From positions 8,333-40,332 of the forward strand of contig JAISKV010000002.1 of NCBI GenBank assembly GCA_031260805.1: DNA of 32,000 bases, given 5' to 3'. The first letter of the stretch is position 1. The number at the start of each line of letters is the position of its first letter. Positions 5,946 through 6,066 of this stretch are shown in pieces. Origin of the DNA: Rickettsiales bacterium. Its GTDB lineage: Bacteria > Pseudomonadota > Alphaproteobacteria > Rs-D84. The position numbers and the translations under genes were made by a program. The notes under the pieces were generated by a model. It searched no databases. It saw only the letters and a program-made list of their open reading frames with translations, and was not told the origin of the DNA.

Positions 5946-5981
5946 TTTTACCCCGCTTTTCTTAAAAACCCGCAGAAACCT

Positions 5982-6021
5982 AGAGAGAGAGAGAGAGAGA
6001 GAGAGAGAGAGAGAGAGAGAG
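5982..6021. repeat. (AG)20 dinucleotide microsatellite, read as (CT)20 on the coding strand of the fibre operon
   Basis: A perfect 40-nt AG run lies 37-76 nt upstream of the 5945 start codon. Confidence 0.95.
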
Positions 6022-6066
6022 TAAAGATGACTTGGTGCAAAGCATAAATAATTTCCTACCAAATAT

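Follow-up and report, generated by a model that had tools for sequence, protein, structure and literature searches.

A motif-linked (CT)20 tract as a candidate frame switch of a secreted-protein operon in a gut alphaproteobacterium related to Candidatus Enterousia

A main result of the analysis reported here is that a dinucleotide tract, (AG)20 on the plus strand, lying before a two-gene operon for secreted proteins (fibS-fibL), is probably a real and functional slipped-strand switch, one of a known kind in a new lineage. In its specific form, which we favour with a little over even confidence, the tract would be the contingency repeat of a portable module and would switch the reading frame of fibS from an upstream start codon, ATG 6045. 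Such a module would consist of a motif of about 20 nt and an (AC)n or (AG)n repeat, and would occupy, in Enterousia-group gut Alphaproteobacteria, the 5' ends of numerous secreted-protein genes that are unrelated to one another. Two features of the putative switch are unusual: a nucleotide-level motif that occurs on unrelated genes in either orientation, and the retention of an ancestral start, which may turn it into a three-state or leaky switch. Slipped-strand control of this operon had been proposed in the first-pass annotation of this DNA, and the general idea draws support from sister cassettes that carry the same flank motif, differ in unit number and hold their genes in or out of frame; the promoter, masking and start-codon specifics of that proposal are corrected below. 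The features on which the argument turns, all located in the 32,000-nucleotide stretch that was analysed (hereafter the window), are as follows.

6067-6125, minus strand: two overlapping sigma-70-like promoter candidates, TTATCA-18-TATACT (6125-6096) and TTGCAT-18-TATACT (6096-6067), from a consensus scan and sequence reading.
6054-6057, minus strand: Shine-Dalgarno-like AGGA, 8 nt before ATG 6045, from sequence reading.
6043-6045, minus strand: candidate phase-variable start ATG, 24 nt before the tract, from sequence reading and frame analysis.
5982-6021, minus strand: presumed hypermutable tract, (CT)20 in gene sense and (AG)20 on the plus strand, from Tandem Repeats Finder.
5980-6045, minus strand: short ORF at n = 20, MLCTKSSL(LS)6L, ending in the stop TAG 5982-5980, from translations for n = 15-25.
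5966-5981, plus strand: cassette motif AAACCCGCAGAAACCT, from a motif search; in gene sense this is AGGTTTCTGCGGGTTT, whose frame 0 translation is RFLRV.
5951-5956, minus strand: GCGGGG, a weak ribosome-binding site 5 nt before ATG 5945, predicted by partition-function folding to pair with the CU tract.
5616-5945, minus strand: fibS, a gene with an ATG of its own whose 109-aa secreted product has a signal peptide (MAKIPVIIFSLFCIFFALNARA/AEIASVQYV), from translation.
4560-5612, minus strand: fibL, encoding a 350-aa secreted protein, its ATG 3 nt past the fibS stop, from translation.

The host is an uncultured gut alphaproteobacterium near Candidatus Enterousia. The L21 protein encoded in the window shows 68-74% identity to those of uncultured gut Alphaproteobacteria, among them Candidatus Enterousia MAGs, and the gut sources of these relatives include termite, rumen, horse and other animals. 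The source genome is a 729-kb MAG in 15 contigs, 93.5% complete. GC skew across the window (1-32000) is positive to about 8000 and negative beyond, and paired heptamer-repeat arrays, visible as rows in the Tandem Repeats Finder output, fill many of the intergenic gaps in the same stretch. The tract itself was returned by Tandem Repeats Finder as a single array of period 2, with 20.0 copies and 100% matches; it is a perfect tandem repeat with a unit length indivisible by 3. Since a repeat scan of the whole 729-kb genome for dinucleotide tracts of more than six units found, besides this one, only a (CT)21 at C6:16071-16112, (AG)20 is far above chance expectation. The perfection and rarity of the tract had both been pointed out in the first-pass annotation and are upheld here, as is the distance of 37-76 nt that it gave between the tract and ATG 5945 on the minus strand; the span it assigned to the finding (5946-6062), on the other hand, is the entire leader, the tract, real as it is, occupying only 5982-6021. 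Loss of mismatch repair as the driver of slippage is ruled out in this organism, which has both MutS and MutL intact, and dinucleotide slippage should consequently be damped.

The reading frames around the tract carry much of the argument. On the minus strand the order of elements is AGGA, ATG 6045, the eight codons MLCTKSSL, (CT)20, the reversed motif read as RFLRV, FKKSGVK and the fibS signal peptide, so that a candidate start codon and ribosome-binding site precede the repeat and the body of the gene follows it. Frame 0 is open from the tract into fibS, and both other frames stop at once. When unit numbers from 15 to 25 were translated in silico, multiples of 3 (15, 18, 21 and 24) let ATG 6045 run into fibS to give products of 139-145 aa, and all remaining values yielded only 19-35 aa. 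The two out-of-frame classes end at different places: with n = 1 mod 3 (16, 19, 22 and 25) the stop is TAA 5950-5948, only five bases upstream from the A of ATG 5945, a spacing compatible with termination and re-initiation at that codon, and with n = 2 mod 3, which includes the assembled n = 20, it is TAG 5982-5980, which borders the tract and precedes ATG 5945 by 37 nt. A frame shift had been entertained earlier as an alternative, with translation starting at TTG 6062, and it is this alternative that comes nearest to the best explanation, once ATG 6045 with its AGGA is put in the place of the TTG. Although in frame at n = 20, TTG 6062 deserves little weight, because a ribosome-binding site is absent there and the nearer promoter candidate would probably start transcription at this codon or downstream of it.

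Expression of fibS could also bypass the tract, through the downstream start at ATG 5945, which has GGGG 5 nt upstream and is followed by the full signal peptide (MAKIPVIIFSLFCIFFALNARA/AE, assigned by eye). The history of this second start is illuminated by the single homologue of fibL found among 5.8 billion proteins searched (P0004, 77% identity), which is encoded on a 4401-nt Logan contig of SRR29082275 (L193). There the same two-gene arrangement is seen, the upstream gene being 68% identical to the C-terminus of fibS, and the operon has a normal ribosome-binding site, ATG and signal peptide, with neither repeat nor cassette motif upstream. Since the start used in this repeat-less operon is equivalent to ATG 5945, the latter is, by this comparison, the ancestral start, and the head of the window operon (promoter candidate, AGGA, ATG 6045, tract and motif) was either added here or lost in the L193 lineage. 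It also follows, with fibS keeping its own start and a homologue doing without the repeat, that the switch may be leaky or graded. The L193 contig has 41% G+C and an ABC-F ATPase gene beside the fibS-fibL pair. Because its neighbouring genes are unlike those of the window, the two-gene unit is, judging by its sequence context, one that has moved or been exchanged. The fibre operon is absent from all 80 related rplU loci compared for synteny, aligning the window leader with the region upstream of the L193 operon gave no usable homology, and exact-protein look-ups with L21 and fibS found nothing elsewhere. A metagenome scan with the left flank of the tract returned no further copy of the locus.

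As to the products, the first-pass annotation had described two secreted tail-fibre-like proteins. Secretion is borne out by signal-peptide-like N-termini in both, but the resemblance to tail proteins comes down to weak matches of fibS to minor-tail and tail-fibre families in PHROG (E 1e-5 to 1e-7), with fibS unmatched in Pfam and PDB sequence searches and fibL matching no named family in PHROG, Pfam or PDB sequence searches. The N-terminal module of fibL, about 100 aa long, belongs to a large multicopy family with homologues in 84 of the 201 family genomes.

The case for a portable module comes from comparison with other loci. An exact 16-nt AAACCCGCAGAAACCT adjoins (AG)20 on the plus strand, and the source genome contains just two matches to this motif, each next to an (AG)n tract. 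The second is found in the flank of the C6 tract (L082/L170), as AAAACCGCGGAACTCT; this sister tract is an (AG)21 in canonical orientation, preceded by an ATG with the ribosome-binding site AAGGGG and followed by a signal peptide, and its gene is in frame, encoding a 253-aa protein that reads MIKNRGTL(ER)n..SRVKVNPKLHTITIGSILAAVAAPGLASA/DLASTEYV. Two related genomes reached through L21 contain (AC)20 and (AC)14 preceded by ..CTGAAACCCGC[AG]GAACTCT, again with an in-frame signal peptide after the repeat. In 200 family genomes a degenerate pattern of the motif matched about 70 times, in 35 genomes, as against 3 matches for a reversed control; up to 11 matches occur in one genome and many are at contig ends. 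Most of the readable matches are directly followed by (AC)n or (AG)n, and the remainder are ordinary terminator hairpins (AAACCCGCAGAAATCTGCGGGTTTT). If a cassette is taken to be the motif AAMCCSGCRGAAMYCT directly adjoining (AC)n or (AG)n, the window locus is one, with the exact motif and (AG)20, and at least 54 loci from the 200 related genomes and two metagenome contigs have the motif directly before such a repeat at the 5' end of secreted-protein genes.

Taken together, the 54 distinct cassettes have in common a conserved block with sharp boundaries, about 20 nt long, (G)CTGAAACCCGCAGAAMYCT, with the repeat directly after it, almost no conservation further upstream and a weak A-R-R-T-A-G past the repeat. 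From gene to gene the block is read in different frames, as KPAELY(TH)n, ETRRNL(ER or HT)n or NPRNS(RE)n, and the proteins downstream fall into more than twenty groups that are unrelated by BLAST; the motif is therefore, as far as these sequences tell, conserved as a nucleotide sequence, and the unit as a whole has the behaviour of a portable module. In nearly all cassettes a ribosome-binding site and an ATG or GTG lie 0-15 codons before the motif and signal peptides come after the tract. The gene is in frame in 12 of the 38 evaluable cassettes, with long ORFs of 215-524 aa that begin with a signal peptide (one further in-frame ORF is truncated by a contig end), and in the others a stop is encountered within a few codons past the tract. 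Paralogs with the same head in a single genome (G076) have 14, 15, 16 or 19 units and frame states to match, a signature known from slipped-strand switches such as oipA of Helicobacter pylori (PMC10564699), and sister cassettes of this kind look like frame switches; their variability is directly observed, as are the tract, motif, geometry and frames of the window. Two canonical cassettes from relatives (L134 and L141) have retained a methionine at the very first position of the signal peptide, which fits the grafting of a module onto complete genes.

A more far-reaching proposal, which we put forward tentatively and regard as possible at best, is that the block and its dinucleotide tract form a self-contained, cis-acting and orientation-independent DNA module, one that nucleates, maintains or targets hypermutable repeats, or is recognised by a dedicated factor, and that has been grafted before complete, pre-existing secreted-protein genes throughout this family of gut symbionts with reduced genomes. 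Were this so, the motif would be conserved for a role at the DNA or RNA level and not for the peptide it encodes, and the window, with its ancestral start preserved and a repeat-less homologue elsewhere, would offer a snapshot of grafting. The cassette motif is also identical to the 5' half of the recurrent terminator hairpin mentioned above, seen at L083, L088, L094, L102 and L105 in related genomes, and downstream of the repeat several cassettes keep a degenerate right arm (CTGCCGGG and a T-run), as though the loop of a terminator-type hairpin had been the place where the repeat grew.

The window differs from this family in one respect. Its unit is inverted relative to fibS, so that in gene sense the motif does not stand between start codon and repeat, and in the other cassettes first examined the secreted-protein gene always lies downstream in the orientation of the motif. 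An unbiased search of family genomes for (AG) tracts of at least 9 units uncovered three paralogous loci that share this reversed layout (L171/L189, L178/L183 and L185), all in G020, a genome of a different genus. In these loci a -10 box is followed by an ATG 21 nt before (CT)7, (CT)10 or (CT)20 and then by AGATTTCTGCGCGTTT, which again reads RFLRV; 6-8 codons separate ATG and (CT)n in this layout common with the window, and past RFLRV comes at once a hydrophobic signal-peptide core, leading into a cysteine-rich protein of 134-158 aa. None of the three has a start codon downstream of the tract. Their ATG lies 6 nt after a TATAAT box and has no ribosome-binding site, which suggests that they give rise to leaderless mRNAs. 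With the same geometry in the three G020 loci and in the window, the reversed unit is, on this comparison, a second and rarer use of the module rather than a chance feature of this contig. When metagenomes were scanned with the reversed-cassette pattern, only two cassettes were returned, both of them canonical in orientation. All four reversed cassettes, window included, are out of frame in the assemblies, a result expected with a chance of about 0.2 under random phase and thus of little weight either way.

Two rearrangements were considered and rejected as the source of the inverted layout. The inverted repeats around the tract are too short to speak for an invertible segment: they are at chance level, the best being 9 nt long (TTTCTGCGG at 5873-5881 and CCGCAGAAA at 5970-5978) where about one is expected, and a flip of the 5873-5978 segment would do away with the start of fibS. 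A scan of window ORFs outside the 15909-23383 operon turned up no recombinase. A simple in-place inversion of motif and tract is not supported by the sequence either, since its reversal would bring a TAG into the reading frame of ATG 6045 and restores no canonical cassette.

The first-pass annotation had placed (CU)20 in the mRNA leader, and this is borne out in silico: with both promoter candidates upstream of the tract, the repeat would be part of the mRNA. Its preference for TTGCAT-18-TATACT as the best promoter is more questionable. This element is indeed present at 6096-6067 on the minus strand, but its -35 box scores 3/6 and the consensus scan lists TTATCA-18-TATACT at 6125-6096. An analogy with hif-type promoters, by contrast, fails outright, for the tract is located downstream of both candidates and not between a -35 and a -10 box; a spacing switch of the type known from the (TA)n of hifA/B was accordingly rejected, each candidate lying wholly upstream of the repeat. 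Two structures were observed in the divergent region, namely a hairpin with 12-nt arms (6092-6116) that overlaps the promoters and a perfect 18-nt palindrome, TGCATAAAATTTTATGCA, at 6140-6157, between the rplU promoter candidate and the rplU ribosome-binding site.

A transcribed repeat might also exert its effect as part of a 5'-UTR, an alternative to which we grant a real but limited chance. Translation of fibS would then begin only at ATG 5945, and (CU)n would act through RNA structure, masking or mRNA stability to give a graded output, much as the first-pass annotation chiefly supposed and as in hmw1A of Haemophilus influenzae. That ATG 5945 comes with an SD-like GGGG and a complete signal peptide, and that the repeat-less L193 homologue uses the equivalent start, are both in its favour, and hmw1A provides a documented case of a repeat in the 5'-UTR that has a G-rich stretch to pair with (PMC12721329). 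Partition-function folding bears on this reading in two ways. It predicts that GCGGGG pairs with the CU tract with a probability of about 0.7 at n>=10, and that the AUG at 5945 is mostly paired, in line with the earlier suggestion that the CU tract could sequester the Shine-Dalgarno sequence; but the predicted pairing is almost flat from n=10 to n=25, so masking cannot make a one-unit switch and unit changes would be of little effect. A specially stable leader structure was likewise rejected, the fold being no better than those of shuffled sequences (z=+1.07). Moreover, a leader repeat leaves unaccounted for both the well-placed Shine-Dalgarno sequence with ATG 6045 and the occurrence of the same ATG-(CT)n-RFLRV order at the G020 loci, where an internal start is absent.

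The frame switch that we favour can be reconciled with the predicted masking. Transcription would proceed from the promoter at about 6067-6125 and yield an mRNA in which AGGA, ATG 6045, eight codons, (CU)20, RFLRV, a basic linker and the fibS signal peptide follow one another; the transcription start, the use of ATG 6045 and slippage at this locus are what we infer from the sequence. The number of CT units would then set the frame. At multiples of 3 (18, 21, 24) ATG 6045 would be fused to fibS and the operon fully translated, the translation of fibL being coupled through its ATG, which follows the stop of fibS by 3 nt. With n = 1 mod 3, termination of the short ORF 5 nt before ATG 5945 would allow re-initiation there, and at n = 2 mod 3, the assembled 20 among them, a stop at the end of the tract would produce the lowest state. 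The weak GGGG site of the internal ATG 5945 is predicted to be largely paired with the CU tract, so that the switch would probably be leaky rather than absolute. In this folding model the tract may damp the internal start constitutively, with the frame of ATG 6045 supplying the switch.

It is unlikely, in our estimation, that the tract is an evolutionary relic, that is, a motif-repeat unit that landed or was inverted before a constitutively expressed operon and now mutates without regulatory consequence. Such an origin would suit the orientation of the unit, reversed relative to all but 4 of roughly 57 cassettes, as well as its out-of-frame state, the restriction of its homology to the C6 and other cassettes to 5963-6021, and the existence of a homologous operon (L193) with no repeat at all. 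Yet an uninterrupted 40-nt tract is not expected to last without ongoing slippage or selection, the promoter candidate, Shine-Dalgarno sequence and ATG are exactly at the position of a functional head, frame 0 alone is open into fibS when both others stop at once, and the reversed layout has been kept in three paralogs of another genus.

The 5' ends of other secreted-protein genes in the same genome provide a context for this locus. The whole-genome repeat scan also gave one (CTCTT)7 tract and a number of poly-C/G tracts. The former, at C14:67666-67700, lies at the 5' end of another secreted-protein gene, with an LASTNFV/LATIKYV motif, and on sequence reading the frame of its ATG meets a stop after the tract. 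Poly-C/G tracts of 10-20 bases are found at C10:105-124, C13:35002-35013, C12:180041-180050 and C14:70014-70028, and these, together with window positions 31940-31948, lie just upstream of or inside the signal-peptide code of secreted-protein genes whose N-termini read GPLAAKSYVD, IASTNYV or LAARSYVD; the four outside the window are candidate homopolymer contingency loci. In the window the run is a G9 (C9 in gene sense) upstream of a minus-strand gene at 30987-31910, whose product has YadA-head repeats and the N-terminus LAARSYVDGAV. Roughly 150 nt upstream of this gene are common with the C14:70014 (C15) locus, and both contigs end there. As its sequence indicates, the organism thus possesses a fibre- or adhesin-like family of secreted proteins whose genes are prone to have simple repeats at the 5' end. 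Long poly-G runs are also seen at or near contig ends (C3:18764-18869, C12:186573-186599, C11:63239-63259 and C8:7893-7908), and these look like sequencing or assembly artefacts. The C3 run is preceded by a flank homologous to the C10 poly-C locus, and contig C3 therefore probably broke at a genuine homopolymer.

Artefact-like poly-G runs of this sort, and the frequency with which contigs of related genomes end at motif-repeat sequences, raise the question of whether the (AG)20 could stem from two loci having been joined chimerically at a repeat they share, or from a miscount of its units in a MAG assembled from short reads. We consider this very improbable: the reverse motif between tract and fibS lies wholly in the left flank and is independent of any join, the right flank holds a coherent head of Shine-Dalgarno sequence and ATG, the genome has no other (AG)n-ended contig that might be an alternative partner, and AG repeats are not known as an artefact of any sequencing platform. 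On the plus strand, rplU and rpmA begin 149 nt to the right of the tract and the motif points towards rplU; before the motif there is the antisense of the fibS start and nothing else. An effect of the tract on this divergent rplU-rpmA operon, for instance as an upstream element or as non-B DNA, can be all but dismissed, since, for all that the motif faces rplU and the tract ends 90 nt before its -35 candidate at 6112, rplU comes with a promoter candidate and leader of its own, the tract is not followed by an ORF in any plus-strand frame, and a repeat lies upstream of rplU in 0 of 80 related loci.

The order Rs-D84, which includes Enterousia and its relatives, comprises uncultured gut bacteria whose genomes are below 1 Mb and which are thought to rely on partner cells, and a term search of the paper that describes them meets no mention of repeats or phase variation (PMC12306168). 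The top-ranked papers in a literature search pairing "Enterousia" with "phase variation" do not contain the word Enterousia. If repeat-controlled surface genes are indeed a family-wide trait, it would mean that minimal cells invest in stochastic surface variation much as host-adapted pathogens do. More generally, a short element that travels with a repeat, in either orientation and onto unrelated genes, would give a handle on the origin and upkeep of hypermutable tracts; the practical value of this one locus, an oddly oriented member of the cassette family, is modest.

Several known systems invite comparison. The (CTCTT)n repeats in the signal-peptide code of Neisseria opa genes find a likeness in the (CTCTT)7 of C14, which is a different repeat at a different locus from (AG)20 and concerns the genome context only; with it present in the same genome, the organism appears to use a set of repeat-controlled loci. 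The variable lipoprotein families of Mycoplasma have conserved 5' cassettes with promoter or leader repeats (poly-A in vlp, GAA in vlhA) that act on transcription. They resemble the present case in joining a conserved 5' module and a hypermutable repeat on many surface-protein genes of a reduced genome, but their modules are carried by paralogs of one family, whereas here they are found on at least 20 BLAST-unrelated families, and here the repeat would act, if at all, on the reading frame. In the hmw1A gene of Haemophilus influenzae, expression falls monotonically with the number of heptamer repeats in the 5'-UTR, a response that needs RNase III (PMC12721329). This arrangement shares with the window a transcribed repeat upstream of an adhesin start and, by prediction, pairing with a G-rich stretch near that start; it differs in that the window pairing is predicted to be insensitive to n and that a start codon lies upstream of the tract.

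Closer at hand are the motif-(AC)n cassettes of Candidatus Enterousia, which come from the same bacterial family and have in common with the window the 16-nt motif adjoining the repeat, a secreted target and units that vary between copies. In the window the repeat is AG instead of AC and inverted, giving (CU)n in the mRNA and the motif in antisense, as RFLRV after the tract, a layout it has in common only with the three G020 loci. The window is hence a member of the cassette family by motif and target, not by orientation. In mechanism, the most telling counterparts are found in Helicobacter pylori, a bacterium not known to have canonical mismatch repair, in which Hop outer-membrane protein genes other than oipA also carry CT repeats in their 5' coding regions. 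In oipA (hopH) itself, the CT repeat is in the 5' coding region and changes of one unit shift the frame (PMC10564699). There, as in the window, a surface-protein gene has (CT)n in gene sense soon after a start codon, within or ahead of the code for the signal peptide. The window gene departs from this pattern in retaining, past the tract, both an internal start and the whole signal peptide, in having its tract flanked by a motif common to several genera and unrelated genes, and in belonging to an organism with intact MutS and MutL. By analogy, it is nonetheless to the CT-repeat switches of H. pylori outer-membrane protein genes that the mechanism proposed here would stand nearest.
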